Assembly: GCA_031370645.1 (NCBI GenBank)
Contig: JANMQV010000143.1
Location: 1 to 40,321, forward strand
Direction of reading: 5' to 3'
Source: Candidatus Eiseniibacteriota bacterium
GTDB lineage: Bacteria; Eisenbacteria; RBG-16-71-46; SZUA-252
DNA length: 40,321 bases
Shown here: positions 4,400-29,074 of the stretch, piece by piece
How positions within the stretch are numbered: the first letter of the stretch is position 1
How the letters are laid out: every line of letters begins with the position of its first letter
Program-made: the position numbers and the translations under genes
The notes under the pieces: generated by a model
Database searches by the model: none
Seen by the model: only the letters and a program-made list of their open reading frames with translations
Told to the model about the DNA's origin: nothing

Positions 4400-4458
4400 G
4401 TCCCGGCTCAAATGGCGATTCGCTTCTACCGCCAGCGTCACATCCGATGGAGGAATTC

Positions 4459-6351
4459 ATGCGCGCCGCGTTCCCCGCTCTCGCCCTTTCGGTCCTTGTG
4501 GCCGCCACGATTCTCAGCGCGATGCCTGGTTTCGCCCCGCCGGCCGCCGCGGCTGCGAAGATTCCCATCACGAAGCTCGCCGACCTGCCGCCACACACGT
4601 ACAAGATCGCGGACAAGCCGAGCGCGCTCGTCTCGAACAAGCCGGCCATTCTCGAGTTGGCGACCGCGGTCGAGAAGGACATGAGAGGGGACCTCGACAA
4701 GTACGACATCCAGGATCAGACCGCGACGCGGCGGATCTACGGCACGCTCCTCACGATCGCGATGCTGAAGCACGACTACCCGGCCGCGCGAGAACTGGTG
4801 ACGACCGTCCGGGGGCTCCAGGAGAAGCCGGCGCAGAAGCTGACTTCCGGCTTGCTGGCGGAAGCGATCATGAAGACGAACGAATCGGCCGCGCCCGATC
4901 CGCACGCCGCGCTCCGCGCGAACCTCGAAGCCTCGCTCCGGGCGCTTCCGTACCAAGAGGTGCAGGATGTGCTCAAGTCGGCGAAGGGAAGTTTTGAGGT
5001 GACGTCGTTGAATCTTATGGTCGGCAGCATGCAGGCGAGCGTCGACCCCGCCGCCAAGGACGGAACGCTCAGCGGCGATTTCGCGACGGGGCTTGTTCAG
5101 GCGGGGTACGTGGCCGCCGAGATCCTTCCGTTCAAGGACGACATCGTCGCGGCGTACGCTGCCGTGCTCGACGCGAACAAGACGGAGGCGAAGGCCGATA
5201 TCTGGGCGGCCCGCGACGTGGCGCTCGACGCTGGCTCGAAGCTGACGCCGGTCGTCGTCGGGATCTGGGATTCCGGCGTCGATGTCGCCCTCTACCCGAA
5301 CCGCCTCTGGACGAACAGCAAGGAAATCGCGGGAAACGGAAAGGACGACGACAAGGACGGGTTCATCGACGACGTGAACGGCATCGCCTGGTCGCTCCAT
5401 TCCGACCCGGAGACGCCGTTGCTTTTTGATTTCGAAAAAGCGGTGGGCGATCGCGCCAAGTTCAAGGGCGACCTGAAGGGGTTCGAGGATCTGCAGGCGA
5501 ATCTCGAAACTCCCGAGGCGACCGCGCTCAAGCAGAAACTGAGTTCGCTGACACAGGAACAGGTGAAGCCGCTCCTCGAGGGGCTGAACGCCTATGCGCA
5601 GTACGCTCACGGTACGCATGTTGCCGGCATCGCCGCCAATGGAAATCCGGCGGCGAGACTCCTGGCGTGTCGCATGACGTTCGACTACCACGCGGTTCCC
5701 GAGAAGCCGACCGTCGAGCAGTTCACGAAGGACGGGAACGCCATGGCGAAGTCGGTCGCCTACTTCAACACGAACGGCGTGCGTGTCGTGAATATGAGCT
5801 GGGGCGGAGACCTCAAGTCGATCGAAACAGCCCTCGAGCTCAACAACGCGGGCGGAACTCCGGAAGAGCGGCGGATCTTGGCCCGGAAGCTCTACGACAT
5901 CGGATACAAGAAGCTCTACGACGCCATGAAGGCGGCGCCGAACGTTCTCTTCGTGATCGCCGCCGGCAATTCGAACAATAACGTGAAGTTCGACGAAGTG
6001 ATGCCGAGTTCGTTCAAGCTACCGAACATTCTCGTCGCGGGCGCGGTCGACCAGGCGGGGGAGCAGACGTCGTTTACCAGCTTCGGCAACGTCGACGTTT
6101 ATTCGAACGGCTTCGAAGTCGACAGCTACGTGCCGGGCGGGGAGCGTATGAAGTTGAGCGGCACGAGCATGTCGGCGCCGAACGTCACCAACTTGGCGGC
6201 GAAGCTCTGGGCGACGAACCCGAAACTGACCGTCGAGCAGGTGAAGCAGTACATCGTGAAGAACGCCGACGAGAAGAAGTCGGGAGAAAACACGATTCGC
6301 CTCATGAACCCGAAGGCCTCGCTGTCGGCGGCCTCGGGCGGCGCGCAGTAG
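4459..6351 (+). CDS. Secreted subtilisin-like S8 serine peptidase with a long N-terminal extension
   Basis: Catalytic triad motifs IWDSGVD, HGTHVAG, GTSMSAP; oxyanion AAGN; Sec-type signal peptide. Start moved to ATG 4459, which follows GGAGG (ORF track starts at 4390). Confidence 0.9.
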   Translation: MRAAFPALALSVLVAATILSAMPGFAPPAAAAAKIPITKLADLPPHTYKIADKPSALVSNKPAILELATAVEKDMRGDLDKYDIQDQTATRRIYGTLLTIAMLKHDYPAARELVTTVRGLQEKPAQKLTSGLLAEAIMKTNESAAPDPHAALRANLEASLRALPYQEVQDVLKSAKGSFEVTSLNLMVGSMQASVDPAAKDGTLSGDFATGLVQAGYVAAEILPFKDDIVAAYAAVLDANKTEAKADIWAARDVALDAGSKLTPVVVGIWDSGVDVALYPNRLWTNSKEIAGNGKDDDKDGFIDDVNGIAWSLHSDPETPLLFDFEKAVGDRAKFKGDLKGFEDLQANLETPEATALKQKLSSLTQEQVKPLLEGLNAYAQYAHGTHVAGIAANGNPAARLLACRMTFDYHAVPEKPTVEQFTKDGNAMAKSVAYFNTNGVRVVNMSWGGDLKSIETALELNNAGGTPEERRILARKLYDIGYKKLYDAMKAAPNVLFVIAAGNSNNNVKFDEVMPSSFKLPNILVAGAVDQAGEQTSFTSFGNVDVYSNGFEVDSYVPGGERMKLSGTSMSAPNVTNLAAKLWATNPKLTVEQVKQYIVKNADEKKSGENTIRLMNPKASLSAASGGAQ

Positions 6352-6365
6352 CCCGGAGCGGCGCC

Positions 6366-9218: not shown

Positions 9219-9242
9219 CATCGCGCCGGGTTGTGGTAAGGT
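9215..9242 (+). promoter_or_regulatory. Putative sigma70 promoter of the gcv operon (TTGACA-N16-TAAGGT with extended TG)
   Basis: Perfect TTGACA at 9215-9220 overlapping the uvrA stop; TGgTAAGGT at 9234-9242. Confidence 0.65.
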
Positions 9243-9279
9243 ACCGGACTCTACCCGCAACTGACGAAATACAAACGAT

Positions 9280-10416
9280 ATGCTCGATACTGCCACCGCG
9301 CTGAAGCGGACTCCGTTTCACCCACGCCATGTGGCCGCGGGAGCCAAAATGGTTCCCTTCGCGGGTCACGAAATGCCCATTCAATATGAAGGCATCCTCA
9401 CCGAGCACCGGACGGTCCGCGCGGGCGTCGGCGTCTTCGACGTGTCGCACATGGGGGAGATTCGCCTCCGCGGCCCTGGCGCCGTCGCCTACGCCAATCG
9501 TCTCGTCACGAACGAAGTCGGCCCGGCTCTGCCGGACGGCAAGGTGGTCTACAGCCCGATGTGCCTGGAGAACGGCGGAATCGTCGACGACCTCCTGGTC
9601 TACGCCTTCGGGGCGGATCGTTACCTCGTCGTGAACGCCGCGAATTTCGACAAGGATCTCGCCTGGATTCGGAGCCACGCCCCAGCGGGCGTGGAGGTGA
9701 TCGACGAGAACGCCGCTACGGCCCAGCTCGCCGTTCAAGGTCCGCGCGCCGAGGATGTCGTGGGCGCCATTTACGGGGATCGAGCCCGCGCGCTGGCGTT
9801 CTACGAGTCGTACATCGACGGCACGGGCGACGGCGCCACGATCGTTTCGCGGACCGGCTACACCGGCGAGGACGGCTTCGAACTCTACATGCCCGCCGCG
9901 CGCGCACTCGACGTCTGGGATCGCGTCTTCGCCGCGGGCGCACCGCACGGCATCCGCCCCATCGGGCTCGGGGCGCGCGACACGCTGCGGCTCGAGATGG
10001 GGTACTGCCTCTACGGGAACGATATCGACGAATCGACGCATCCGCTCGAAGCGGGAATCGGCTGGACGGTTCATCTCGATAAATCCGAATTCATCGGCCG
10101 CGAGGCCATCGCGAACGCCAAGGCGGCGGGACTGAAGCGCCGCCTGCTCGGCCTCATTCTCGACGGGGCCCGCATCGCGCGCCCCAGCTTCGAGGTCGAG
10201 GTGCAGGGGAAGCGCGTCGGGACGGTCACGAGCGGCACCATGGGCATCAGCATCGGCCGACCGGTCGCGATGGCCTATCTGGAGGGCGAAGCGGCCCGTC
10301 CGGGCGCGAGCGTCGACGTCGTGACGCGCGGCGAGCGGATTCCGGCGATCGTCTCGGGCCGACCGATGTACACGAAGGGAAGCGTTCGCTCGCCCCAACC
10401 GAGGAGACCTCAATGA
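9280..10416 (+). CDS. gcvT: Glycine cleavage system T protein (aminomethyltransferase)
   Basis: KRTPFH, EHRTVRAGVGVFDVSHMGE, GGIVDDLLVY, SRTGYTGEDGFE, GLGARDTLRLEMGYCLYG. Confidence 0.97.
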   Translation: MLDTATALKRTPFHPRHVAAGAKMVPFAGHEMPIQYEGILTEHRTVRAGVGVFDVSHMGEIRLRGPGAVAYANRLVTNEVGPALPDGKVVYSPMCLENGGIVDDLLVYAFGADRYLVVNAANFDKDLAWIRSHAPAGVEVIDENAATAQLAVQGPRAEDVVGAIYGDRARALAFYESYIDGTGDGATIVSRTGYTGEDGFELYMPAARALDVWDRVFAAGAPHGIRPIGLGARDTLRLEMGYCLYGNDIDESTHPLEAGIGWTVHLDKSEFIGREAIANAKAAGLKRRLLGLILDGARIARPSFEVEVQGKRVGTVTSGTMGISIGRPVAMAYLEGEAARPGASVDVVTRGERIPAIVSGRPMYTKGSVRSPQPRRPQ

Positions 10417-10799
10417 ACGTGCCGAAGGATCTCCGCTACACGAAGGAACACGAGTGGGTTCGCTCCAAAGGGGGCGAGGTGGAGGTCGGCATCACGGAAT
10501 ACGCGCAGGGAGAGTTGGGCGACGTGATCTTCGTCGATCTCCCGCCGCTCGGAACGAAGGTGGTCGCCATGAAGGGCTTCGGATCAATCGACGCTGTGAA
10601 AACGGTGAGCGATCTCTTCGCCCCCGTGGCCGGGGAAATCGTGGCGGTCAATGATTCGCTGAAGGACAATCCGGCGCTCGTGAACACGTCGCCCTATGAA
10701 AAAGGGTGGATGGTTCGAATCCGCGCCGAGAAACCCGCGGACGTGAACGCGCTCCTCTCGGCCGACGACTACGAGAAACTGCTGGGGGCGCACGCGTGA
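10413..10799 (+). CDS. gcvH: Glycine cleavage system H protein
   Basis: LRYTKEHEWV, VGITEYAQGELGDVIFV, lipoyl Lys63 in DAVKTVSD, NTSPYEKGWM. Confidence 0.97.
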   Translation: MNVPKDLRYTKEHEWVRSKGGEVEVGITEYAQGELGDVIFVDLPPLGTKVVAMKGFGSIDAVKTVSDLFAPVAGEIVAVNDSLKDNPALVNTSPYEKGWMVRIRAEKPADVNALLSADDYEKLLGAHA

Positions 10800-12181
10800 G
10801 TTTCGTAGGCCGAAGCGACGCCGAACGCCGGGCCATGCTCGAGCGGATCGGCGCGCGGACGATCGAAGAACTTTGGAGCGCGATCCCGGCGGAGTTCCGG
10901 GTGCCGGGAGCGCTGCCGCTTCCCGCGCCGCTCGCGGAGTACGAGATCTCGAAGCGGTTCGAAGCCGACGCCGGTCGAAACGCCGACTCGGGGCGCTACG
11001 CCTGTTTCCTCGGCGCCGGAATCTACGACCACTTCATCCCGTCCGCGGTGCGCGCGCTCACGTCGCGCTCCGAGTACGCCACCGCCTACACGCCCTATCA
11101 GCCCGAAGTCGCGCAGGGGACGCTCCAGGTCATCTTCGAATACCAGTCGATGATCCGCGAACTGACCGGCATGGAAGTGGCGAACGCCTCCATGTACGAC
11201 GCCGGCACCGCCGCCGCGGAGGCCGCCCATCTGGCGGTCGGCGCGAAGGGGCGCCGCCGGATCGTCGTCTCGGCCGGGCTCCATCCACATCATCGCCAGG
11301 TCCTCGCGACCTACGCTTCCGCCGGCGGTTTCGACATCGTTGAGGTTCCTCTCTCTGGGGGCCGCACCGATGCCGCCGCCGTGAAGTCGGCGCTCGGCGC
11401 CGATGCCGCCGCTTTCCTCTGGGCTCAGCCGAACTTCGAAGGAATCGTCGAAGAGGGAGCGACACTCACGGACGTGGCTCATGCCGCCGGTGCCTACTCC
11501 GTGGCCGTCGGCGATCCGATCGCGCTGTCCGTCCTCACGCCGCCGGGGGCGCAGGGCGCCGACATCGTGGTCGGCGAAGGGCAGCCGCTCGGCGTCTCGA
11601 TGTCGTACGGCGGCCCGCTCGTCGGATTCTTCGCCATTCGCAAGGCGGACGTGCGCCGACTCCCGGGGCGACTCTCCGGGGTCACGGTCGACCTCGACGG
11701 GCGCCGCGGTTTCGTTCTCACACTTCAGACGCGCGAGCAGCACATTCGCCGCGAGCGCGCGACGTCCAATATCTGCACGAACCAGGGACTCATGGCGCTC
11801 GCGAACACGATCCACCTGGCGCTCCTCGGCGCGGAGGGGATGCGCGACGTGGCGCTCCAGTGCCTCGAGCGAGCGCACTATTTGGCCGAGCGGGTCGCCC
11901 GCGTGCCGGGAGTGTCGGTTGCGCACGCCGCACCCTTCTTCCGCGAGTTCGTGCTTCGACTTCCGGGCCCCGCGGCCTCATTCGTGGAGCACGCGCTCTC
12001 CGCGAATCTCCTCGCAGGCGTCCCGATGTCGCGCTTCGACCGGGGCAGGCCGAACGATCTCCTCGTCGCCGTGACGGAAAAGCGGACACGCGAGGAGATG
12101 GATCGCTTCGCCGCTGCCTTGGCCGCTTGGGTGAAGAGCCGCGCGGCGGCGCCCGCCGAGGAGGCCGCGTGCCCGCGATGA
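10796..12181 (+). CDS. gcvPA: Glycine dehydrogenase (decarboxylating) subunit 1
   Basis: FLGAGIYDHFIP, TAYTPYQPEVAQG, ANASMYD, LQTREQHIRRERATSNICTNQ. GTG start overlaps the gcvH stop (GTGA). Confidence 0.96.
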   Translation: MSFVGRSDAERRAMLERIGARTIEELWSAIPAEFRVPGALPLPAPLAEYEISKRFEADAGRNADSGRYACFLGAGIYDHFIPSAVRALTSRSEYATAYTPYQPEVAQGTLQVIFEYQSMIRELTGMEVANASMYDAGTAAAEAAHLAVGAKGRRRIVVSAGLHPHHRQVLATYASAGGFDIVEVPLSGGRTDAAAVKSALGADAAAFLWAQPNFEGIVEEGATLTDVAHAAGAYSVAVGDPIALSVLTPPGAQGADIVVGEGQPLGVSMSYGGPLVGFFAIRKADVRRLPGRLSGVTVDLDGRRGFVLTLQTREQHIRRERATSNICTNQGLMALANTIHLALLGAEGMRDVALQCLERAHYLAERVARVPGVSVAHAAPFFREFVLRLPGPAASFVEHALSANLLAGVPMSRFDRGRPNDLLVAVTEKRTREEMDRFAAALAAWVKSRAAAPAEEAACPR

Positions 12182-13662
12182 ACGATCCTTCGATCGTCGA
12201 GGCGACGCTCCGCGAAATCTCGGTCGCGGGGCACCGGGGGCCGCGACTTCAGCCGCTCGACGTTCCCGAGCGCGGCGCCGCGGTGCTTCTCCCGAACGTC
12301 CCGCTTCGGTCCGGCGCGCCCGCGCTGCCGGAAGTCTCGGAGCCGGCGGTGGTCCGCCATTTCGTGAATCTCTCCACGCTCAATCACCACATCGACAAGG
12401 CGATCTATCCGCTCGGGTCGTGCACGATGAAGTACAACCCGAAATTGAACGACGAGATGGCGCGGCTCCCGGGCTTCGCGGGAATTCATCCGTTCCAGCC
12501 CGACGATACCGTTCCGGGAGCGCTGGCCGTGATCGGCGAACTCCACGAGTGGCTTCGCGCGATCATGGGGATGCCGGGGATCACCACCCAGCCGGTCGCG
12601 GGCGCCCAGTGCGAGCTGACCGCGATTCTCATGGCTCGCGCCTACCACACCGACCACGGCGATCCGCGCGAGGAAGTGATCGTGCCCGATTCGGCGCACG
12701 GCACGAACCCCTCCACGGTGGCGCAGGTCGGCTACAAGGTCGTGACGGTTCCTTCGGGCCCCGACGGACTCGTCGACATGGAAGCGTTGAAGAAGGTTGT
12801 CTCGCCGAAGACCGCGGCCATGATGCTCACGAATCCGAACACGCTCGGCATCTTCGAGCGGGAAGTGGGGACGATCGCCACGTGGATTCACGACGTCGGC
12901 GCGTTCCTCTATCTCGACGGCGCGAACCTGAACGCCATGGTCGGCCTGGCGAGCCCCGGCGCCATGGGCTTCGACTTCGCGCACATCAACCTGCACAAGA
13001 CCTTCTCGACGCCGCACGGCGGAGGGGGACCGGGAGGCGGCGTCCTCTGCGTCCGTCCCGACCTCGAACCCTACCTACCGTTGCCGGTTCTCGTCGCCGT
13101 CGGATCGGGATATCGCTGGGACTACGATCGCCCGCGCTCCATCGGACGCGTCCATTCCTACTACGGCAATTTCGGCATCCTCGTCCGCGCGCTCGCGTAC
13201 ATGCGGTCGCTGGGGGCGTCGGGAATCGCGGAAGTGAGCCGCGAGTCGATCCTCAACGCGAACTATCTGAAAGCGCAACTCCGCGAGGCGTACGCGCCGT
13301 CGCACGAGGGCTACTGCATGCACGAGTTCGTCCTCTCGGCGAACCGCCAGAAGGCGCGGGGCGTGAAGGCGCTCGACGTGGCGAAGCGGCTTCTCGATTT
13401 CGGCTTCCACGCGCCGACGACCTACTTCCCGCTCATCGTGGATGAGGCGTTGATGATCGAGCCGACGGAGACCGAAACGAAGGCGGCGATCGACGCGTTC
13501 GCCGAAGCGATGCTCGCGATCGATCGGGAATCGATCGAGGATCCCGATTCGGTGCGCCGCGCTCCCACCAAGACGCCGGTGCGCCGCTTGGACGAGGCGC
13601 GCGCCGCGCGCAACCTGGTTCTCTCGTGGCAAGATCTCGAGGCCGGGCGTGGAGGCGTCTGA
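12178..13662 (+). CDS. gcvPB: Glycine dehydrogenase (decarboxylating) subunit 2
   Basis: YPLGSCTMKYNPK, PDSAHGTNP, PLP-Lys motif NLHKTFSTPHGGGGPG, MIEPTETE. ATG overlaps the gcvPA stop; in-frame GTG 12169 is an alternative start. Confidence 0.96.
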   Translation: MNDPSIVEATLREISVAGHRGPRLQPLDVPERGAAVLLPNVPLRSGAPALPEVSEPAVVRHFVNLSTLNHHIDKAIYPLGSCTMKYNPKLNDEMARLPGFAGIHPFQPDDTVPGALAVIGELHEWLRAIMGMPGITTQPVAGAQCELTAILMARAYHTDHGDPREEVIVPDSAHGTNPSTVAQVGYKVVTVPSGPDGLVDMEALKKVVSPKTAAMMLTNPNTLGIFEREVGTIATWIHDVGAFLYLDGANLNAMVGLASPGAMGFDFAHINLHKTFSTPHGGGGPGGGVLCVRPDLEPYLPLPVLVAVGSGYRWDYDRPRSIGRVHSYYGNFGILVRALAYMRSLGASGIAEVSRESILNANYLKAQLREAYAPSHEGYCMHEFVLSANRQKARGVKALDVAKRLLDFGFHAPTTYFPLIVDEALMIEPTETETKAAIDAFAEAMLAIDRESIEDPDSVRRAPTKTPVRRLDEARAARNLVLSWQDLEAGRGGV

Positions 13663-14086
13663 GGCGACTCCGGCTGTCGGGCTCGCCTGGAGCTCGTGGC
13701 CCGCGCGGCGACGCCCGCTGGCGGCCGCGGTCGTGCTCGCGTCCGTCGCGATTTTGGGGGTCCTGGTGCGTCAAGCAACCGGAGACGGGGTCCTGGCCGT
13801 CGCGGCGCCCTTCTTCGTTCTCTTGTCCGTATCGTCGTGGCTTCTCCCGACCGGCTTTCGCCTGACGGAGGAGGGGCTCGAAGTGCGATCGCTCGGTGTC
13901 ACGCGCGTTCGTCCCTGGAGCGAAATGCGACGCATGGTGGTGGATGATTCGGGGGTCTTCTTGAGCCCGTTCGAGCGGAAACACTGGCTCGACGCGTATC
14001 GGGGAGTCCGCCTGCTAACCGGAGGAAACCGCGATCAAGTGGTGGCGTTCGTGGAAGCGAAGCTCGGCGCCCGCGCCGGTGGATAG
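13649..14086 (+). CDS. Hypothetical membrane protein (two TM plus small, possibly PH-like, beta domain)
   Basis: Two hydrophobic helices, then PTGFRLTEEGLEV..RPWSEMRR..GVFLSPF...LDAYRGV. Overlaps the genes on both sides. Confidence 0.7.
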   Translation: MEASEATPAVGLAWSSWPARRRPLAAAVVLASVAILGVLVRQATGDGVLAVAAPFFVLLSVSSWLLPTGFRLTEEGLEVRSLGVTRVRPWSEMRRMVVDDSGVFLSPFERKHWLDAYRGVRLLTGGNRDQVVAFVEAKLGARAGG

Positions 14087-14483
14087 CGCGACGCCGGCGG
14101 CTCAGGCGACGGCACCGCCAAACGCGGGCGAGCCGAAGGCCGGGGCCTACACGCCCGAAGAGGAGGCGCTCCTCGACCGCCTGGCGGAGCTGACGGTGCG
14201 GCACCGCATGACGGTTCCCGCCATTCTCCTGTTGGAGTCGGTGAAGCCGCTTTCGTTTCTGGGGAGCCAGGCCCTCCTCTTTTTTGAACCGATGGTCCGC
14301 GCGTTCTTCAGCGTGCCGGACTACGATCGCGTCGTTGCGCTCCTCGAACGGCGGGAGAGCCTTGAGGCGCTTCTCGTGCGGATCGAAGCGAAAGAAGACG
14401 ACATGCGACGCGAAGAGCGGGAGGCCAAGGAGCGGCGCCGCGAGGCGCGCCGGGCCGGAACCGATGGAAAGGATCCCTCGTGA
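14079..14483 (+). CDS. Hypothetical alpha-helical protein
   Basis: MTVPAILLLESVKPLSFLGSQALLFFEP core and charged C-terminal coil. Overlaps both neighbours. Confidence 0.75.
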   Translation: MDSATPAAQATAPPNAGEPKAGAYTPEEEALLDRLAELTVRHRMTVPAILLLESVKPLSFLGSQALLFFEPMVRAFFSVPDYDRVVALLERRESLEALLVRIEAKEDDMRREEREAKERRREARRAGTDGKDPS

Positions 14484-16300
14484 GTGAGCGGAAACCGGAA
14501 GATCTGAAATCGATTCTCGCGACCGACTGCGGGAGCACGACGACGAAGGCGATCCTCATCGAGAAGCGGGGCGACGAGTATCGCTTGATCGTGCGCGGCG
14601 AAGCGCCGACCACCGTCGAAGCGCCCTTCGAGGACGTGACGCGCGGCGTACTGAACGCGATCATGGAAGTGGAAGAGTTGGCGGGCCGAAAGATCCTCGA
14701 CGGCGAGCGGATCATCACGCCGCAGGAAGGAAACGCGGGGGTCGATCTCTACATCTCGACCTCGAGCGCCGGCGGCGGACTCCAGATGATGGTGTCCGGC
14801 GTCGTGAAGAGCATGACGGGCGAGAGCGCCCAGCGCGCCGCGCTCGGCGCCGGCGCCATCGTCATGGACGTCATCGCGAGCAACGACGGGCGCCTCCCGC
14901 ACGAGAAGATCAAGCGGATCCGCCAGCTCCGCCCCGACATGATTCTCCTCTCGGGCGGGATCGACGGCGGCACCACATCTCACGTGGTCGAGATGGCGGA
15001 ACTGCTCGCCGCGGCCGACCCGAAGGCGCGCCTCGGCGCCGGCTACGAACTGCCGGTCATCTACGCCGGAAACAAGGACGCCGCCCCGATGGTCGAGGAA
15101 ATACTTGGCTCGAAGACCGCGCTCGTCATCACCGACAACCTCCGCCCGGTGCTGGAGCGGGAGAATCTGACGCCGGCGCGCGACAAGATCCATGATCTCT
15201 TCATGGAACACGTCATGGCGCACGCGCCGGGTTACAAGAAGCTGATGACCTGGTCGCCCGTGCCGATCATGCCGACCCCGGGCGCTGTGGGACTCATCAT
15301 CGAGACCATCGCGCGCGAGGAGAAGATCAACGTCGTCGGCGTGGACATCGGCGGCGCCACCACCGACGTGTTCTCGGTATTCCAGACGATCTTCAACCGC
15401 ACGGTGAGCGCGAATCTCGGCATGAGCTACTCGGTGTCGAACGTGCTCGCGGAGGCGGGGCTGCCGAACATTCTCCGCTGGGTGCCGTTCGAGATCGGCG
15501 AGCCCGACCTTCGAAACCGGATCAAGAACAAGATGATCCGCCCGACGACCATCCCCCAGACGATGGAGGAACTGGTCATCGAGCAGGCGATCGCCCGCGA
15601 GGCGCTCCGTCTTGCGTTCGAGCAGCACAAGACGCTCGCGGTCGGCCTGAAGGGCGTGCAGCAGGAGCGCACCATTTCCGACACGTTTGAGCAGACGGCC
15701 AGCGGCGAGTCGCTCGTCCGCCTCGACCATCTCGATCTCCTCGTCGGAAGCGGCGGTGTCCTCTCGCACGCGCCCCGGCGCGCCCAGTCGGCGCTCATGA
15801 TGCTCGACGCGTTCCTGCCGGAGCACGTCACGGAGCTGGCCGTCGACTCGATCTTCATGATGCCGCAGCTCGGCGTGCTCTCCACCGTGCATCCCACGGC
15901 GGCGCGCCAGGTCTTCGAGAAGGACTGCCTCATCCGGCTCGGTTCGAGCGTGGCGCCGGTCGGACCCGGCAAGGAAGGGCAGCCCGCGCTCAAGGTGTCC
16001 CTCGAACTGCCGGGCGGAAAGCGCGAGGAACTCTCGATCCCGTACGGCGCGCTTCGCCTGCTTCCGCTCGGCGAAGGGGAATTCGCGAAGGCGACGCTTC
16101 GCCCCGAGAAGGGATTCGACGTCGGCGAAGGGAAGGGGAAGGAACGGACGGTCAACCTCCGAGGCGGCGTGGTCGGGGTCATCTTCGACTGCCGCGGACG
16201 GCGCCCGTTCGGGCTCCCCGAGGATCGCGCCCGCCGTATCGTCAAACTGAACGAATGGAACGACGCACTGGCCGCTTATCCGGCCGTCGTGAGGAGCTGA
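14480..16300 (+). CDS. GlmL/MutL (glutamate mutase L)-like ASKHA-fold ATPase
   Basis: Phosphate-1 motif ILATDCGSTTTK, STSSAGGGL, LLSGGIDGG, phosphate-2 motif VDIGGATTDVFS, RTVSANLGMSYS, LVGSGGVLSHAP. Confidence 0.85.
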   Translation: MSERKPEDLKSILATDCGSTTTKAILIEKRGDEYRLIVRGEAPTTVEAPFEDVTRGVLNAIMEVEELAGRKILDGERIITPQEGNAGVDLYISTSSAGGGLQMMVSGVVKSMTGESAQRAALGAGAIVMDVIASNDGRLPHEKIKRIRQLRPDMILLSGGIDGGTTSHVVEMAELLAAADPKARLGAGYELPVIYAGNKDAAPMVEEILGSKTALVITDNLRPVLERENLTPARDKIHDLFMEHVMAHAPGYKKLMTWSPVPIMPTPGAVGLIIETIAREEKINVVGVDIGGATTDVFSVFQTIFNRTVSANLGMSYSVSNVLAEAGLPNILRWVPFEIGEPDLRNRIKNKMIRPTTIPQTMEELVIEQAIAREALRLAFEQHKTLAVGLKGVQQERTISDTFEQTASGESLVRLDHLDLLVGSGGVLSHAPRRAQSALMMLDAFLPEHVTELAVDSIFMMPQLGVLSTVHPTAARQVFEKDCLIRLGSSVAPVGPGKEGQPALKVSLELPGGKREELSIPYGALRLLPLGEGEFAKATLRPEKGFDVGEGKGKERTVNLRGGVVGVIFDCRGRRPFGLPEDRARRIVKLNEWNDALAAYPAVVRS

Positions 16301-16301
16301 C

Positions 16302-17432
16302 GTGGCCCACTCGTATACGCCAGGACTGAAGGTCACCGCGTTCGCCGTGGTCCGGCGGGAGCGGAAGCTTCCGCTCGCGGGAAGCGTCCTTGTGAATGTC
16401 GGAGACAACGTCGCCGCGGAGGCGATCGTCGCCCGAACCGAACTCCCCGGAAACGTGCAGAGCGTGAACGCCGCGAACCTCCTCGGCATCCTGCCGGAGG
16501 ACGTTCAGGACTGCCTCACGAAATCCGTCGGATCGAGCGTGGCCAAGGGCGAGGTCTTCGCGGAGAGCAAGTCGTTCTTCGGACTCTTCCGCTCGAAGGC
16601 CGTCTCCCCGGTCGCGGGAACGCTCGAGAGCGTTTCGAGCGTGACGGGGCAGGCGCTCCTTCGCGAGCCCCCGATCCCGGTCGAAGTCGACGCCTACGTG
16701 GACGGTACCATCGTGGAGGTCCACCCGAAGCAGGGTGTAACGGTCGAGACGCGCGGCACGTACATCCAGGGAATATTTGGCATCGGCGGGGAGACCTGCG
16801 GCGAGCTCCACGTCGCCGTGGCGGCTCCTTCCGACACACTGACGGAAGCGATGATCGGCGAGAAGGATCGCGGAAAGATCCTCGTCGGCGGGGCCCACGT
16901 CACAACCAAGACGCTCCTGCATGCCATCCAACTGGGTGTCCGGGCGATCGTGATCGGCGGATTCGACGACCACGACCTCCGCGAGTTCCTCGGCTACGAC
17001 CTGGGCGTGGCCATCACCGGTTCCGAGGAAAAGGGGATCACGCTCGTCGTGACCGAAGGCTTCGGCGAGATCCCGATGGCCGGACGGACGTTCGAGCTAC
17101 TGAAGGCATGCGAAGGGCGAAAGGTCTCCGTGAGCGGGGCGACGCAGATCCGAGCGGGCGTTCTTCGCCCCGAGATCATCTGCCCGCGCCTGGAGGCCGA
17201 ACTGAAGAGCTCTGCCCACGATGAGAGCCCGGGAGGCGAGGGTCTTTCCGTCGGCTGCCAGATTCGGATCATCCGCCAGCCCTTCTTCGGGCGACTCGGA
17301 ATCGTGACCTCGCTTCCGCCCGAGCCGACGGCGCTCGAGACGGAGGCGAAGGTCCGAGTCCTCGAGGTCGACTTCGGAGGCGGCGAGCGCGCGTTCCTTC
17401 CGCGCGCCAACGTGGAGCGAATCGAGTCATAG
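16302..17432 (+). CDS. Hypothetical protein with barrel-sandwich-hybrid (lipoyl/biotinyl-like) repeats and a C-terminal KOW/SH3-like domain
   Basis: VGDNVAAEAIVAR, VGSSVAKGEVFAE...SPVAGTLESV, AYVDGTIVEV; C-terminal VGCQIRIIRQPFFGRLGIV. Starts 1 nt after the GlmL-like stop. Confidence 0.8.
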   Translation: MAHSYTPGLKVTAFAVVRRERKLPLAGSVLVNVGDNVAAEAIVARTELPGNVQSVNAANLLGILPEDVQDCLTKSVGSSVAKGEVFAESKSFFGLFRSKAVSPVAGTLESVSSVTGQALLREPPIPVEVDAYVDGTIVEVHPKQGVTVETRGTYIQGIFGIGGETCGELHVAVAAPSDTLTEAMIGEKDRGKILVGGAHVTTKTLLHAIQLGVRAIVIGGFDDHDLREFLGYDLGVAITGSEEKGITLVVTEGFGEIPMAGRTFELLKACEGRKVSVSGATQIRAGVLRPEIICPRLEAELKSSAHDESPGGEGLSVGCQIRIIRQPFFGRLGIVTSLPPEPTALETEAKVRVLEVDFGGGERAFLPRANVERIES

Positions 17433-17445
17433 GCGGAAAGGAATC

Positions 17446-17474
17446 TTGACAGCCTTTCGGAAGCGCCCTACCGT
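17446..17474 (+). promoter_or_regulatory. Putative internal sigma70 promoter (TTGACA-N17-TACCGT)
   Basis: Perfect -35, 17-bp spacer and TAnnnT -10 in the only large gap of the cluster. Confidence 0.55.
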
Positions 17475-17579
17475 ACTCGCGTTGGCCGGAAGCACCCAGC
17501 ACCGGAGGCATTGCCTGCGCGTGATTTCTTGTCATCTCACTCCCCGCATCTTCGACAGGCTCGACCGAGGAGTGCCCGC

Positions 17580-18725
17580 CTGATCACTTCCATTCGTACC
17601 GTGATCGCTCGCGCCGTCGCGACGGCCGCGGTCCTCCTTACGTTAGCCCTGCCCGCTTCGACGTCTGCCTTCCCGCTCGTGGCGACGGACACGCCCAACG
17701 ACGGCGGGAAGAGCATCAATCTGACCTGGACGCTCCCGGCCGTTCCGCCGGCGCATTGGACGCTTGTCCGCCGCGAGTTCCCGAACGGCGCCTTCTCGCC
17801 GGTCGCCACGCTCGACGGCACGGACCACGCGTACCAGGATTCCGGTGAAGGGCTCACGGACGGTGTTCGTTACGAGTACCTGCTCCTGGCCGCGCCCGAC
17901 GATCCGGCGCTCCGCTCGGAGGTTTCGGGGCCCGTCTCCTCGTCGCCTGAGTGGTTCGACATGACGAAGCAGAACGTCGCCGTCGTCCTCGTTCTCTTCT
18001 TCATCGTGCTCTTCTTCTACATCGAGCAGGCCCGGAGAGGGACGAAGTGGACGTTCCGGCGCATCGCCGGCCTCGACGCCATCGAAGAGGCGATCGGCCG
18101 CGCGACGGAGATGGGGAAGGGCATCCTCTACGTTCCGGGAGTTCAGGATATCGACGACATTCAGACGATCGCGTCGATGATCCTCCTCGGACAGGTGGCG
18201 CGCACCGCGGCGAAGTATGAGACGCCGCTCCAGGTCCCCACGAACTCTCCCGCCGTCTATACGGTGGCGGAGGAGGTCGTGAAGGCGAGCTATCAGGATG
18301 TCGGACGCGCGGACGCGTACCGTTCCGAGCAGGTGCGCTACATCACCTCCGAGCAGTTCGCCTACGTCGCCGCGGTGAACGGCATGATGCTCCGCGATAG
18401 GCCGGCCGCGAACCTTTTCCTCGGCGCCTTCTTCGCGGAATCGCTCCTCTTGGCCGAAACGGGCCACTCGATCGGTGCCATTCAGATCGCGGGAACCGCG
18501 AACGTTCACCAGATGCCGTTCTTCGTGGTGGCGTGCGACTACACGCTCATCGGCGAGGAGTACTACGCGGCAAGCGCGCTCCTCTCGGGCGACTCGATGC
18601 TACTCGGTAGCCTCAAGTCCTCCGATACGGTAAAGATCTTCCTCATCATCGTCGTCGTGGTCGGGTGCATCCTCTCCTCCTCCGGCTTCACGCAGTTCGG
18701 CGACTGGTGGAGCACCACCCGATGA
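17580..18725 (+). CDS. Membrane protein with signal peptide, FN3-like domain and DUF6754-like domain
   Basis: Signal peptide ..ASTSA-F; ATDTPNDGGKSINLTW..YQD..LTDGVRYEY (FN3-like); TM; RRIAGLDAIEEAIGRATEMGK; QIAGT..QMPFFVVACDYTLIGEEYYAASA; C-terminal TM. Start uncertain: TTG 17511, CTG 17580 after GAGGAG, or GTG 17601. The DUF6754 name is recalled, not searched. Confidence 0.8.
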   Translation: MITSIRTVIARAVATAAVLLTLALPASTSAFPLVATDTPNDGGKSINLTWTLPAVPPAHWTLVRREFPNGAFSPVATLDGTDHAYQDSGEGLTDGVRYEYLLLAAPDDPALRSEVSGPVSSSPEWFDMTKQNVAVVLVLFFIVLFFYIEQARRGTKWTFRRIAGLDAIEEAIGRATEMGKGILYVPGVQDIDDIQTIASMILLGQVARTAAKYETPLQVPTNSPAVYTVAEEVVKASYQDVGRADAYRSEQVRYITSEQFAYVAAVNGMMLRDRPAANLFLGAFFAESLLLAETGHSIGAIQIAGTANVHQMPFFVVACDYTLIGEEYYAASALLSGDSMLLGSLKSSDTVKIFLIIVVVVGCILSSSGFTQFGDWWSTTR

Positions 18726-18735
18726 GGGCCCGGTC

Positions 18736-19374
18736 GTGAAGCGCGAAATTCCGATTCTGATCACGCTCATCTCGGGCCTCTTCTGCCTCATCGGCTTCTT
18801 CGTCCCACACCCCTGGGTGCGAAACAGCTACGAAGATATCCAGACCTGGGCGCTCATCCTCGTCGGGCTCACCTACGTGCTCGGCGTGGCGAATCTCCTC
18901 AGCGTGAATCTCAAGAGCGTCTCGGCGCGCCGGACGGACTGGCTCTACAAGCTCGTCCTCGTCGCCTCGCTCCTGGTCATGATGGGAATCGGGTTCTCCG
19001 AAGGGGACAAGTACCTCGACACCACGTCGAAGTTCTCCTGGATGTACCGCAATTTCTATTCGCCGATGTCCGCGACCATGTTCGCGCTTTTGGCCTTCTT
19101 CATCGCGTCGGCAGCCTTCCGCGCCTTCCGCATTCGGTCGCCGGAAGCGATGCTCCTCGCGATCGCGGCATTCATTCTCATGATCGGACGCGTCCCGGTC
19201 GGGAATCTCATCAGCCACTGGGTGCCCGACGCGGCGGACTGGCTCATGGAAATTCCCCAGAACGCCGCCAAGCGGGGCATCTTGATCGGCGCGGCGCTCG
19301 GCGTCATGGCGACCGGCATCCGGCTCATTCTCGGCATCGAGAAGACGTATGGTAGCGGAGGAGACGGCGCGTGA
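18736..19374 (+). CDS. Hypothetical polytopic membrane protein (about 6 TM)
   Basis: Hydrophobic helices; SATMFALLAFFIASAAFRAFRIRS; PQNAAKRGILIGAALG..GIRLILGIEK. Confidence 0.8.
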   Translation: MKREIPILITLISGLFCLIGFFVPHPWVRNSYEDIQTWALILVGLTYVLGVANLLSVNLKSVSARRTDWLYKLVLVASLLVMMGIGFSEGDKYLDTTSKFSWMYRNFYSPMSATMFALLAFFIASAAFRAFRIRSPEAMLLAIAAFILMIGRVPVGNLISHWVPDAADWLMEIPQNAAKRGILIGAALGVMATGIRLILGIEKTYGSGGDGA

Positions 19375-20207
19375 GCGGTCTCGGCTGGCTGAGGAATCTC
19401 GATCGCCGCTGGCTCTTCCTCTGCGTGGCCCTGCTCGTGATCGTCCCGCTCATGATGGGCTTCCACGTGGCGCCCGTTCTACCGGGGCATCGGGCGAAGG
19501 GCTTCTATGACACGGTCGAGAAGCTCCCGGCGGGCTCCACGGTTCTATTGGCGGGGGATTACGACCCGGGGACGATCGCGGAGAACTATCCGGCGCATCT
19601 CGCGGCCGTTCGTCATCTCATGAGCAAGAACGTGAAGATCGTCGCCATCGCGCTCTATCCGGGCGGCCCGCCGCTTACGGACGAGGTTCTCGCTATCGGA
19701 GCCCGCGAGTACAACAAGCAGGTAGGCATCGACTACGTCAATCTGGGGTACAAGGCCGGCAACGAGGTCGTCATGTCGCGAATGGGTCTCAGCATCCCGG
19801 AGACCTTCCCGGTCGACAGTCGCGGCGTCCCGGTGGGCCAAATTCCCGTTATGACCGGCATTCGCAATTTCAACGACCTCGATCTCCTCGTGAATATCAG
19901 CGCGGGCTATCCGGGGACGAAGGAGTGGGTGCAGCAGGTCGTCTCGCGGTACCACATCCCGATGGTCGCCGCCGTCACCGCGGTGAGCGCGCCCGAGTAT
20001 TATCCCTACCTCCAAACGGGCCAGCTCCAGGGCCTGCTCGGCGGCATGGCCGGCGCGGCCGAATACGAGGCGCTCGTGAAGCATCCCGCCCTCGCGATGC
20101 GCGGCATGGACGCGCAGTCGCTGGCGCACCTCTTCATCGCCTTCCTCATCATCCTGGGCAATCTGGCCAGCCCCCCGAAGCGGGACGCTGGAAAGCGGGA
20201 CAGCTGA
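19371..20207 (+). CDS. Hypothetical membrane-anchored protein (N- and C-terminal TM, central alpha/beta domain)
   Basis: DRRWLF plus TM; DYDPGTIAE; GIDYVNLGYKAG; YPYLQTGQLQGLLGGMAGAAEYE; MDAQSLAH plus TM. GTGA overlap with the previous gene. Confidence 0.8.
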   Translation: MSGLGWLRNLDRRWLFLCVALLVIVPLMMGFHVAPVLPGHRAKGFYDTVEKLPAGSTVLLAGDYDPGTIAENYPAHLAAVRHLMSKNVKIVAIALYPGGPPLTDEVLAIGAREYNKQVGIDYVNLGYKAGNEVVMSRMGLSIPETFPVDSRGVPVGQIPVMTGIRNFNDLDLLVNISAGYPGTKEWVQQVVSRYHIPMVAAVTAVSAPEYYPYLQTGQLQGLLGGMAGAAEYEALVKHPALAMRGMDAQSLAHLFIAFLIILGNLASPPKRDAGKRDS

Positions 20208-20851
20208 TGCATCTGAGCCCCGACTTCGGCGTCTGGATCGCGGCGTTCCTCACGCTCGGCATCTTCTCGTTCCTCTACCGCGACAACCCGGTCTACAAGC
20301 TCTGCGAGCATCTCTTCGTCGGCATCTCCGCCGGCTACTACGTCGTGCTCACGTACTACTCCACCCTGAAGCCGAATCTCGTGACGCCGCTCTTCTTCCA
20401 TTTCGGAGAAGGACGGAATTTCCTGCTGGTCGTTCCGCTTCTATTGGGCGTGCTCCTCTTCTCGCGCTTCTTCCCGAAGGGCGACTGGCTCTCGCGCTGG
20501 CCGATCGCGGTCATCCTCGGCGTCTACCCGGCGCTCCGGATCACGGGCTTCGGGCAGAGCGATCTCGTGCAGCAGATCAACGGCTCGATCCTCCCGCTCT
20601 GGGGCGGCATCGGCGCCGGCGAATTGATCAACAACTGGCTCCTCGTGATCGGGCTCCTCTCCACGCTCGTCTTCTTCTTCTTCTCGAAGGAGCACAAGGG
20701 CGCCCTCGGCGGCACCGCGAAGATCGGAATCTACTTCCTGATGGTGAGTTTCGGCGCCAGCTACGGCTACACGGTCATGGCGCGTATCTCGCTCCTCATC
20801 GGGCGGGTCATGTTCCTCCTTCGCGACTGGCTCGGCGTCCTCCGCTTCTAG
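20207..20851 (+). CDS. Hypothetical polytopic membrane protein (about 6 TM)
   Basis: WIAAFLTLGIFSFLYRDNPVYKLCEHLFVG; FLMVSFGASYGYTVMARISLL. ATG 20207 in a TGATG overlap; the ORF-track start at 19925 is too long. Confidence 0.8.
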   Translation: MHLSPDFGVWIAAFLTLGIFSFLYRDNPVYKLCEHLFVGISAGYYVVLTYYSTLKPNLVTPLFFHFGEGRNFLLVVPLLLGVLLFSRFFPKGDWLSRWPIAVILGVYPALRITGFGQSDLVQQINGSILPLWGGIGAGELINNWLLVIGLLSTLVFFFFSKEHKGALGGTAKIGIYFLMVSFGASYGYTVMARISLLIGRVMFLLRDWLGVLRF

Positions 20852-20861
20852 GAGGCTGACC

Positions 20862-21653
20862 GTGCCGGATCGCGCTCCGGTCTTCCAAGCCCTCCACCTT
20901 CCGCACCGCGTCGCTCCCGGCGAACTCCAGATGGAGATCGACGGCGCGCTCCTTCGCTGGGCCGCGGCCGCCCCCGATCGTCTCGTCGTCCGCACGTATG
21001 GATGGAGCCGTCCCACGCTGAGCCTCGGACGCGTGGAGCCGTTTCCGGCGGGATGGGACCGGGACGCCATCGCGCGGGACGGGCTCGACGTCGCGCGCCG
21101 TCCCACGGGCGGCGATGCCGTGCTCCACGACGAAGAGGCGACGTTCGCCGTGGCGGCGAGCGTTCCGGGTCCCTGGGCGGACGCTCCGCGCGCCTTCGCG
21201 GAGCGCGTCGCCGACGCCGTGGCCGCGGCCTACCAGACACTTCATCTCGCCGCGGAGCGGATCCCCTCGAGCGACCGTGGTCCGACGCTACCGGCCGGGG
21301 CGACGCCCTGTTTCGCCCGGAGCGCGCCCGGGGAAGTCCGGGTCGGCGCGTTCAAACTGGCCGGAATCGCTTCGAAGTTCACCCGAGGCGGCGCCTTGAG
21401 CCATGCGTCGCTTCCGCTCACCGGGCGACACCGCGACGTGGCGCGATACCGGAGCGATGCTCCCCAGGCGGCGGCGCTTCTTGCCGGCCACGCGCGCGGC
21501 GCGGGGGAACTACTCGGAGCGGCCCTCTCCGCGGACCTCTTGCAGGAGCGCGTCGTCGCCGCGCTCGCCACCGCGTTTGGCGTGACGCTCGAAGCCGCGC
21601 CCTTCGCCGCCGTGGGACTCCGCGATCCAGATTCCGCGATGCCGCCCTCATGA
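20862..21653 (+). CDS. Lipoate-protein ligase family protein, LipM-like octanoyltransferase
   Basis: RTYGWSRPTLSLG, VARRPTGGDAVLH, conserved CF motif (TPCFARS), catalytic Lys in FKLAG. No LplA C-terminal domain. GGAGG RBS. Confidence 0.8.
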   Translation: MPDRAPVFQALHLPHRVAPGELQMEIDGALLRWAAAAPDRLVVRTYGWSRPTLSLGRVEPFPAGWDRDAIARDGLDVARRPTGGDAVLHDEEATFAVAASVPGPWADAPRAFAERVADAVAAAYQTLHLAAERIPSSDRGPTLPAGATPCFARSAPGEVRVGAFKLAGIASKFTRGGALSHASLPLTGRHRDVARYRSDAPQAAALLAGHARGAGELLGAALSADLLQERVVAALATAFGVTLEAAPFAAVGLRDPDSAMPPS

Positions 21654-29007: not shown

Positions 29008-29074
29008 TCGGTTCGCGACGGCCGCGAGGCCGCCGCCCATCGGGCGCGTCCCACCGGGGAGGCACCGCCGCGCC

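Follow-up and report, generated by a model that had tools for sequence, protein, structure and literature searches.

A conserved bacterial gene module joins a MutL/GlmL-family ATPase and its partner to a DUF6754 membrane unit

Genes B to H of the window, the 40,321-nucleotide stretch of DNA analysed here, form a conserved module that is found in many bacterial phyla. We hold with moderate confidence that they encode one ATP-driven system, in which a cytoplasmic ATP-binding protein (C) and its obligate partner (D) would be shared by four-protein inner-membrane units (E–H) built round a DUF6754 protein. The ATPase, its partner and the four membrane proteins probably make up a membrane machine of a new kind. 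In the papers and libraries searched we found no description of the module, no tested homologue, no solved structure and no assigned function for any homologue. The initial annotation had proposed an undescribed ATP-dependent membrane complex tied to glycine and lipoate metabolism. Its conserved core, its ATPase–partner pairing and its view that no function had been assigned all stand, but the metabolic tie does not.

The genes are tightly packed (Table 1). All the open reading frames lie where the initial annotation had put them, on the plus strand. Read from the sequence, neighbours overlap by 4 nt at gcvT/gcvH, gcvH/gcvPA, gcvPA/gcvPB, B/C and F/G, by 14 nt at gcvPB/A, by 8 nt at A/B and by 1 nt at G/H; 1 nt separates C from D, and 10 nt separate both E from F and H from I. 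The only real gap is that between D and E, and there is translational coupling inside B-C-D and inside E-F-G-H. H starts at 20207; because its homologues start after G, the longer reading frame is an out-of-frame extension. Hydropathy agrees with four membrane proteins and adds two hydrophobic segments in A. None of A, B, D, F, G and H has a Pfam family above cut-off, nor one at E ≤ 10, where A gives only a YcxB-like match below threshold.

Table 1. Coordinates of the locus and the basis of each assignment
Feature	Position	Strand	Basis
gcvT	9280-10416	+	PF01571, 299 bits (Pfam)
gcvH	10413-10799	+	PF01597, 143 bits (Pfam)
gcvPA	10796-12181	+	PF02347, 411 bits (Pfam)
gcvPB	12178-13662	+	PF21478, 97.5 bits (Pfam)
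A, 145 aa, two hydrophobic segments	13649-14086	+	ORF, hydropathy
B, 134 aa, small; first gene of conserved module	14079-14483	+	ORF, neighbourhood
C, 606 aa, actin-fold (ASKHA) ATPase, MutL/GlmL family	14480-16300	+	PF13941
D, 376 aa, partner of C	16302-17432	+	AlphaFold2 model, C-D fusions
Promoter-like hexamers and conserved block of ~45 nt before E	17446-17524	+	Sequence, alignment of relatives
E, 404 aa, DUF6754 protein	17511-18725	+	PF20539, 375.5 bits (Pfam)
F, 212 aa, polytopic membrane protein	18736-19374	+	Hydropathy
G, 278 aa, membrane helix at either end	19371-20207	+	Hydropathy
H, 214 aa, polytopic membrane protein	20207-20851	+	Corrected start, inside ORF 19925-20851
I, 263 aa, LplA/LipB/LipM superfamily	20862-21653	+	PF21948, 52.9 bits; PF03099, 28.8 bits (Pfam)

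The gene order is conserved well beyond this lineage. We surveyed 80 public loci found through D, and denominators refer to testable loci. C immediately precedes D in 56/63, and E-F-G-H follow D in order in 51/58; the fixed order of the six core genes, which the initial annotation had put forward as a check, holds in Eisenbacteria (19/19), in Nitrospira (24/24) and under other labels (8/15). B precedes C in 19/19 Eisenbacteria loci, 17 of the 23 in Nitrospira and 9 of the 16 under other labels; its conserved core spans approximately residues 39–83, and it matches no Pfam or NCBIfam family. A, as judged by tblastn, is lineage-restricted and lies outside this widely conserved core: it turns up in loci of Eisenbacteria type and in a few others (33–80% identity), and in no Nitrospira locus.

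C and D belong together, because fused proteins that combine them exist (P0148, 995 aa; P0221, 1003 aa). Moreover, where D stands alone, C (66–78% identical) and a DUF6754 protein are encoded elsewhere in 5/5 genomes. D has a match in 182 of the 201 genomes of the phylum, a single one in most. Both D and DUF6754 were found in 176 of these genomes, D only in 6, DUF6754 only in 4 and neither in 15 (one member of this last class is inferred), so that the two are concordant in 191/201, a tally that overstates the association because related genomes are not independent. Six of the ten discordant genomes are <90% complete and the other four 90–98% complete. C was likewise not found in 5/5 good genomes without D. 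C, D and DUF6754 are thus gained and lost together. The membrane unit can nevertheless persist without the ATPase pair, since one genome (G083, 98% complete) has precisely lost C and D and keeps intact reading frames for a B-like protein (119 aa), E, F, G, H and I.

C is the only PF13941 protein of the genome. It matches the whole profile (433 bits, residues 12–483) and has about 120 additional residues C-terminal to the match. Identity is 66–94% across phyla and 66–70% between Eisenbacteria and Nitrospira; in more distant Eisenbacteria loci C is 70–76% identical, against 47–52% for gcvT. The nucleotide-binding stretches (residues 16–23, 289–296 and 424–426) are invariant among 19 sequences.

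D has the look of an adaptor. An AlphaFold2 model (pLDDT 92.3) predicts a barrel-sandwich hybrid domain, a swivelling β/β/α domain and a KOW/SH3-like barrel, with fold matches at Z 7–9, values that, according to the tool, are often seen for models lacking any true relative. Across 72 aligned D sequences there is no invariant His, Cys or Lys that might act as a group carrier; invariant Arg, Glu, Gln and Asn residues are present.

The membrane unit combines a constant core with an exchangeable exterior. E carries an exported fibronectin-III domain, then a membrane helix, then the conserved DUF6754 core, with a further membrane helix last. In its model (pLDDT 72.9) the fibronectin-III domain (structure match Z 11.2) and the α/β part are good and the conserved region 287–338 is poor. 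Homologues of 708–2020 residues keep the core, and their outer domains differ widely, with a β-propeller or other domains where E has fibronectin-III. Conserved Glu, Asp or Gln residues lie in hydrophobic stretches of E (E310, E316, D343, E349 and E350). F has some five to six hydrophobic segments, and ten homologues of F share no consistent Pfam family; none was found in nine homologues of G or nine of H. The soluble domain of about 210 residues between the two helices of G would face outwards, because a conserved D11-R12-R13 precedes helix 1.

The start of E may be 17601 rather than 17511, which would make the D/E gap 168 rather than 78 nt: the nearest database record has 374 residues, and the Atlas copy of E begins at residue 31. 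The initial annotation had placed an internal promoter in this gap. A consensus scan found none, yet TTGACA and TACCGT, separated by 17 nt at 17446–17474, are a plausible candidate, both hexamers being kept in 7/7 aligned relatives with a spacer of varying sequence. Some 45 nt that precede E form a further block conserved in 7/7 aligned relatives; the stretch downstream is poorly conserved. There is no convincing covariation.

The genome encodes C-D once and E-F-G-H three times. The two other E-F-G-H units lie far from C-D and have glycosyltransferase genes and the gene for a polytopic TPR protein as neighbours. Three DUF6754 matches are present in 22 of the 26 good genomes of the family, and numbers per genome across the phylum run from one to nine.

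We propose that C binds and hydrolyses ATP, and that the resulting conformational change would be relayed by D, whose three domains are of adaptor type and which lacks a conserved His or Lys to which a carried group could be covalently attached. C-D would make physical contact with the membrane proteins by docking onto the cytoplasmic core of E, which is nearly invariant. At the membrane, E–H would then move or process a substrate, the choice of which would depend on E's exchangeable outer domain, and the one C-D pair would serve all three E–H units of the genome. Our leading guess for the substrate is an envelope or extracellular polymer or a glycoconjugate.

Parts of this arrangement have parallels in known systems. 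The actin-fold proteins PilM (with PilN/PilO), FtsA and MreB (with RodZ) dock onto partners in the membrane, and the module is analogous in placing a cytoplasmic actin-fold protein in one operon with bitopic and polytopic membrane partners. However, we found no sequence or family relation: C belongs to PF13941, and those families gave no match among the membrane proteins. ECF transporters share one ATPase module among several membrane components, much as one C-D pair may serve three E–H units with a variable substrate-facing part on a constant core; here the ATPase is of the actin fold rather than the ABC type, and the sharing is suggested by copy numbers only. The barrel-sandwich domain of D (residues 49–123) resembles NqrA (4u9o_A, Z 7.3, rmsd 2.3, 64 aligned) and RnfC (8ahx_C, Z 7.2, rmsd 2.8, 65 aligned), both Z values being in the chance range. 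Some D-like Atlas clusters carry RnfC_N on 19% of their members, and subunit sizes are similar to those of Nqr, but D, E, F, G and H match no Rnf/Nqr Pfam family and have no cofactor motifs. The middle domain of D (approximately residues 130–297) resembles the swivelling phospho-histidine domain of PEP-utilising enzymes, namely PTS Enzyme I (2wqd_A, Z 9.3, rmsd 2.6, 105 aligned) and rifampin phosphotransferase (5hv1_A, Z 8.8), as well as the swivelling fold of RraA and the aconitase X small subunit (3c8o_A, Z 8.5; 7cnr_B, Z 8.0). It differs from all of these in having no invariant His and no Pfam match.

Other explanations account for parts of these data. It is unlikely, though worth weighing, that C-D is a helper in the assembly, repair or regulation of E–H, as GlmL- and Hsp70-type proteins are thought to serve their clients, and that E–H works alone, for example on membrane potential. 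The named members of PF13941 are accessory proteins, two of the three E–H units here are remote from C-D, the conserved Glu, Asp and Gln residues in the hydrophobic stretches of E would suit an ion-coupled membrane protein, and E-F-G-H survive intact in G083. Four genomes have DUF6754 and no D match, but three of these assemblies are 63–81% complete and may just be missing D. C and D are extremely conserved and have been lost along with DUF6754 in 15 genomes, which fits an integral subunit better than an optional helper, and no relative is known to have a chaperone-type client. We regard as a distinctly outside chance that C-D is a soluble ATP-dependent enzyme of kinase, ligase or hydantoinase type that traps or activates a compound carried by E–H with no mechanical coupling, like a facilitator and its kinase. 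C does have weak matches to hydantoinase/oxoprolinase families (PF01968, E 4e-5; PF05378, E 1e-3), the middle domain of D shares its swivelling fold with phosphotransfer enzymes, and the invariant residues of D could line an active site. Against this, D has no residue suited to carrying a group, metabolic enzyme genes are not conserved beside the module in the flanks of the loci, and a single small-molecule substrate is hard to square with such different outer domains of E.

The family name of C suggests a reactivase of a coenzyme-B12 mutase encoded elsewhere, with unrelated neighbours; we find this scarcely credible. GlmL/MutL (a methylaspartate mutase accessory protein whose mechanism, to our knowledge, has not been tested) and Or-4 (GlmL-related, of ornithine degradation) share with C the PF13941 profile, two actin-fold halves and conserved nucleotide-binding stretches, and a B12-dependent class II ribonucleotide reductase is encoded on another contig. 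However, C falls below the NCBIfam cut-offs for GlmL (234.6 bits against 475), Or-4 (220.3 against 600) and glmL_fam (170.1 against 204), and has its additional C-terminal residues. The absence of a mutase gene noted for the window extends to the whole genome (95% complete), in which glutamate-mutase E has no match. On these two grounds, C is not a glutamate-mutase helper. Its constant neighbours are D and the four membrane proteins, and never a mutase in the scanned flanks of the 80 loci. The role in glycine or lipoate metabolism first suggested, such as taking up lipoate, octanoate or glycine or handling the cofactor of the H-protein, is very improbable too. The genes are translationally coupled to gcvPB; in Eisenbacteria-type loci gcvPB lies upstream in 15/16 and a lipoyl-transferase gene downstream in 15/16 that could be tested, an arrangement that persists in G083 after the loss of C-D, and TA06 and WOR-3 loci hold gcvPB, the module and an LplA-type gene in that order. 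In Nitrospira, by contrast, the counts are 0/21 for gcvPB and 0/23 for the lipoyl-transferase gene; flanks in Acidobacteriota, CSSED10-310, Pirellulales and Calditrichota are unrelated; GcvH is kept in 5/5 genomes lacking C and D; and the genome's other E–H units have quite different neighbours. The linkage is therefore largely bound to a few lineages, a result that the initial annotation had named as counting against its proposal, and no role of the module in the metabolism of glycine or lipoate can be demonstrated. Its position between gcvTHP and the lipoyl-transferase gene would go back to an old insertion that Eisenbacteria, TA06 and WOR-3 have retained.

Gene I itself groups by function with the gcv genes. 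It scores well short of the cut-off of every NCBIfam model, and the earlier label 'LipM-like' is better widened to the LplA/LipB/LipM superfamily. I is the sole PF21948 match and the only protein of that superfamily in the genome, and GcvH needs it with or without the module, as the genome has no other lipoyl/octanoyl transferase; lipA is present elsewhere in the genome.

Thirteen closely packed genes occupy positions 9280-21653 on the plus strand of the window. The glycine cleavage genes gcvT, gcvH, gcvPA and gcvPB stand at the start and are followed by nine reading frames, A to I, which encode two small proteins (A and B), a predicted ATPase of the actin-fold (ASKHA) type (C), its partner (D), a DUF6754 protein (E), three membrane proteins (F, G and H) and a protein of the LplA/LipB/LipM superfamily (I). 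We refer to B-C-D-E-F-G-H as the module and to E-F-G-H as the E-H unit. The initial annotation had described an ATPase and membrane gene set beside the gcv genes, and the reading frames, the Pfam searches and the junctions read from the sequence confirm this observation. Overlaps of 4 nt join gcvT/H, gcvH/PA, PA/PB, B/C and F/G; the overlap is 14 nt at gcvPB/A, 8 nt at A/B and a single nucleotide at G/H. C and D are spaced by 1 nt, E/F and H/I by 10 nt each, and the sole real gap in the run lies between D and E. By hydropathy, F has five or six hydrophobic segments, H about five, E three and A two; G has a single one at either end, and B, C and D have none. No Pfam or NCBIfam family is assigned to A, B, D, F, G or H, and at E-values up to 10 these six yield scattered matches, all sub-threshold.

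Genes of the run with their positions, strand and the evidence for each assignment
Gene	Position	Strand	Evidence
gcvT, gcvH, gcvPA, gcvPB	start of the 9280-21653 run	+	Pfam
C	14480-16300	+	PF13941 MutL/GlmL, 433.2 bits (cut-off 27)
E	17511-18725 (start perhaps 17601)	+	PF20539 DUF6754, 375.5 bits (cut-off 27)
H	start 20207, not 19925	+	junction reading
I	20862-21653	+	LplA/LipB-type catalytic domain, PF21948, 52.9 bits (cut-off 27)

Comparative evidence, namely gene order, C-D fusion, co-presence and co-loss, gives good support to the proposal that these genes form a single ATPase-plus-membrane system. We searched one genome per species with D, which yielded 80 loci, and placed the thirteen proteins at each by tblastn.

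Conservation of gene order around D, counted over loci with sufficient flank and grouped by the organism label of the record
Arrangement	Eisenbacteria	Nitrospira	Other labels	Remark
C directly upstream of D	19/19	26/26	11/18	
E-F-G-H in order behind D	19/19	24/24	8/15	
B upstream	19/19	17/23	9/16	tblastn at 1e-5, insensitive for a short protein

The exceptions to this order are loci L029, L031, L036, L039, L040, L044, L058 and L080. At L031 and L044, unrelated inserted genes separate D from C, which is 4-8 kb upstream, and in the five genomes in which D stands alone, both C (66-78% identical) and DUF6754 are found elsewhere in all five. Three loci under other labels (L008, L010 and L023) are very close to Eisenbacteria loci, so we suspect binning errors. 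Two proteins, P0148 (995 aa) and P0221 (1003 aa), are C-D fusions with PF13941 in front and D behind. Further module loci come from TA06, WOR-3, Acidobacteriota, CSSED10-310 and Calditrichota; by their titles, the records with module loci include Caldithrix abyssi and strains of Nitrospira. Among Atlas clusters resembling D, Zixibacteria, Planctomycetota, Fidelibacterota and Chloroflexota are the most frequent groups.

In the window's phylum the module is nearly core, and in Nitrospirota its distribution is patchy, with D in 8 of 61 sampled genomes. Of 201 sampled genomes from the window's phylum, 182 contain D and 180 DUF6754 (each in 110 of the 121 good genomes), which makes the module near-universal in one candidate phylum. 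Both are found in 176 genomes, D only in 6, DUF6754 only in 4 and neither in 15 (14 of these 15 are named in both lists, and G200 is assigned by inference). Leaving out G015, a genome flagged as unpublished and positive for both, changes the counts to 181/200 for D and 179/200 for DUF6754. As related genomes are not independent, we read these counts as a pattern and not as a statistical test. The ten discordant genomes are G065 (90% complete), G098 (89%), G114 (88%), G083 (98%) and six others below 90%. Among five good genomes that lack D, C was found in none and DUF6754 in one.

The chief argument against an obligatory motor comes from G083. In this genome (contig C10, 72000-88000, minus strand 3704-12688 of the extracted locus L086) C and D are cleanly missing, and the order reads gcvT-H-PA-PB, a 119-aa B-like reading frame, E, F, G, H and I, all intact. 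The membrane unit can therefore persist without the ATPase pair.

What kind of protein is C? It aligns with the whole of the MutL/GlmL family profile (positions 1-450 of 450). We excluded mutase reactivation as far as sequence can tell. C falls below the cut-offs of the GlmL equivalog NF040745 (234.6 bits against 475), the Or-4 model NF040744 (220.3 against 600) and glmL_fam TIGR01319 (170.1 against 204.05); mutase E (PF06368) has no match in the window's own genome, which is 95.4% complete; and no mutase genes were seen in the scanned flanks of module loci, although GlmL goes with the mutase subunits GlmS and GlmE. The 19 sequences compared, drawn from several phyla, do not vary at residues 16-23, 289-296 and 424-426, and together we take these stretches to be the phosphate-1, phosphate-2 and adenosine-binding motifs. 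No stretch that a nucleotide-binding actin-fold protein should have is missing from C, a predicted ATPase. About 200 columns are invariant in the same 19 sequences, and C of Eisenbacteria and Nitrospira loci is 66-70% identical. Two of the module proteins exceed neighbouring core metabolic enzymes in conservation: over the more remote Eisenbacteria loci, identity is 70-76% for C and 47-52% for gcvT. C also has about 120 extra C-terminal residues. Searches against solved structures, with the single sequence and with a profile, gave no relative of C.

D is conserved to an exceptional degree. All 8000 scored candidates are significant, and the best 120 of the 8000 are 73-92% identical, 368-392 aa long and nearly all unnamed. 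Solved structures searched with the single sequence and with a profile yielded nothing useful. The predicted model of D is confident (pLDDT 92.3, pTM 0.81) and has three parts. The first, residues 49-123, is similar to the N-terminal barrels of NqrA (Z 7.3) and RnfC (Z 7.2). For residues ~130-297 the matches are the swivelling domain of PTS Enzyme I (2wqd_A; Z 9.3, rmsd 2.6, 105 aligned), rifampin phosphotransferase (5hv1_A, Z 8.8), RraA (Z 8.5) and aconitase X (Z 8.0), and for residues 312-376 they are KOW/SH3-like barrels such as those of NusG (Z 8.8) and NdhS (Z 8.3). Z values below 8 may reflect a common arrangement alone and the Enzyme I-type matches are just above 8; because values of this size are common, we take all of these matches as fold labels only. 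Foldseek gave weak whole-chain matches, with a probability of 0.15-0.21 for whole NqrA. The PEP-utilising mobile domain has a phospho-accepting His, whereas the 72 D sequences that we aligned have no invariant His, Cys or Lys, and no near-invariant His either. Judged by these residues, D is not a phospho-, lipoyl- or biotinyl-carrier. Annotation of C as "glutamate mutase L / MutL" and of D as "NusG" is misleading.

Of D, only the N-terminal barrel has matches to Rnf/Nqr subunits. An Rnf/Nqr-like complex we rejected because the membrane subunits match no such family: at E-values up to 10 the Rnf-Nqr Pfam families have no match in the window's E, F, G and H, nor at up to 0.1 in 28 homologues of F, G and H. 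Loose-threshold Pfam searches of the same 28 homologues gave no consistent family. A machine built from duplicated subunits was also considered and dropped, as hhalign shows no relation among E, F, G and H or between the C-terminal part of C and any of the three parts of D.

E is the one membrane protein of the unit with a named family. Its predicted model is weaker (pLDDT 72.9) and consists of an FN3 domain (Z 11.2), a membrane helix, an alpha/beta region at residues 188-280 (pLDDT 80-93) and a final helix. The most conserved stretch, residues 287-338, is poorly predicted and rich in invariant Glu, Asp and Gln. Structure searches with the model returned fibronectin-III matches only and left the DUF6754 core without a match; an Atlas search that skipped DUF6754 clusters gave no usable match, and the E profile found only FN3 among solved structures. 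Basic residues follow the first membrane helix of E and precede the first helix of G, which suggests that the core of E lies in the cytoplasm, with its FN3 domain and G's soluble domain outside. The outer part is variable, the inner part constant. Among the 120 E homologues of 708-2020 aa in the matches listed, the domains ahead of DUF6754 are PQQ-like beta-propellers in 39, fn3 in 14, RHS repeats in 1 and unrecognised in 65. One of the 120 listed, P0413 (709 aa), joins a GT-C-type membrane domain (DUF2142/PMT_2, 147-394) to DUF6754 (449-690) in a single reading frame, and could be either a true fusion or a gene-calling merge.

We examined the idea of a shared ATPase through copy numbers. Contigs C32, C157 and C203 of the window's own genome each carry an E-F-G-H set, in identical order and with 36-47% mutual identity (the two paralogues of E score 379.6 and 335 bits against PF20539); A, B, C, D and I are present once. 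The unit at C157:18046-21410 (L004) has no C-D and lies downstream of GT2, GT4, WecA-type GT4 family, sigma-54 activator and methyltransferase genes. The unit at C203:11037-13908 (L005), also without C-D, is flanked on one side by a polytopic TPR-tailed protein, which has no PMT_2 match at E-values up to 0.05, and on the other by a polytopic F5/8 type C protein; the E of this unit is 266 aa long and lacks the FN3 domain. Among 26 good genomes of the same family, 22 have three DUF6754 matches, 3 have two and 1 has four, and the range across the phylum is 1 to 9. In other phyla, four genomes have 1 to 3 and a fifth, in which the contig ends just behind D, gave no match. Two TA06/WOR-3 loci (L062 and L070, ~6420-18640) have a lone gcvPB, with no gcvT, gcvH or gcvPA next to it, immediately ahead of B-C-D, behind which come a tandem pair of E-F-G-H units and an LplA-type gene.

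It had also been proposed that the ATPase and membrane complex is tied to glycine and lipoate metabolism through the adjoining gcv genes and a LipM-like enzyme. At testable Eisenbacteria loci, gcvPB lies upstream in 15 of 16 and a lipoyl-transferase gene downstream in 15 of 16. Under other labels, gcvPB is found at 3 of 15 loci and the lipoyl-transferase gene at 4 of 14, and these are the suspected mis-binned loci together with TA06 and WOR-3. No Nitrospira locus has either gene (gcvPB 0/21, lipoyl-transferase 0/23), and in the remaining phyla the flanks of the module are unrelated to each other. GcvH, moreover, is kept in all five genomes that lack C and D. The metabolic tie is thus unsupported, and the gcv neighbourhood is no guide to the function of the module. 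On the simplest reading, the module would be an old insertion between gcvPB and the transferase gene that has been retained since. The putative co-transcription with the gcv genes may be of regulatory relevance. I itself also matches PF03099 (28.8 bits, cut-off 21) and comes near the cut-off of no NCBIfam model, the best being LplAB with 25.7 bits against 550. It is the sole LplA/LipB-family gene of its genome (lipA lies elsewhere), and as such would be required for GcvH regardless of the module's role.

An internal promoter had been placed before E. A consensus scan of the gap between D and E found neither promoter nor terminator. Nevertheless, positions 17446-17474 hold TTGACA and TACCGT separated by 17 nt, and in an alignment with six relatives both hexamers are invariant or nearly so (kept in 7 of 7), whereas the spacer sequence varies. 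The ~45-nt block behind the hexamers, up to 17524, is conserved far better in the alignment than the beginning of the E frame, and has no convincing covarying structure. Hexamers and block may be a leader or a regulator site, and a putative promoter inside the run, followed by a conserved leader, is therefore plausible. Rfam has no match across the window and so offers no glycine riboswitch. A separate site of similar form lies ahead of gcvT at 9215-9245 (TTGACA, 17 nt, TAAGGT).

What might the module do? It is possible, if rather unlikely, that it represents a new class of primary membrane machine, driven by an actin-fold (ASKHA) ATPase and not of the ABC, P-type or rotary kind, in which a single C-D motor would dock on several units of the DUF6754 type and exchangeable outer domains would pick the cargo. 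In a bolder version, for which the leads are thin, the cargo would be a lipid-linked sugar or envelope glycan handled with GT-C glycosyltransferases. These leads are the P0413 fusion, the glycosyltransferase cluster upstream of one extra unit and the polytopic TPR protein upstream of the other, and GT-C genes at three of the 80 loci: a PMT_2 gene directly follows the module at L033 (14100-16514) and L037 (14603-16669), and at L080 (3981-5807) one lies behind C-D with one other gene between. We abandoned a GT-C association as a rule given this count and keep it as a lead only. A literature search, which in part covered titles and the beginnings of abstracts, found nothing on any part of the module, and we came across no experimentally tested relative of any component. 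If C-D does drive the membrane unit, this would be a new mode of coupling ATP to membrane work and would provide a function for several thousand "hypothetical" proteins; D alone has relatives in 2453 cluster representatives at E-values up to 0.001 (482 at up to 1e-30).

Two other gene arrangements in the window deserve mention. Two GlgC-like nucleotidyl-transferase genes with hexapeptide C-termini stand side by side at 28874-31629. At 38248-39747, a single reading frame combines a formyltransferase domain of the PurN type with a SAICAR synthetase of the PurC type, an unusual purine-synthesis fusion.
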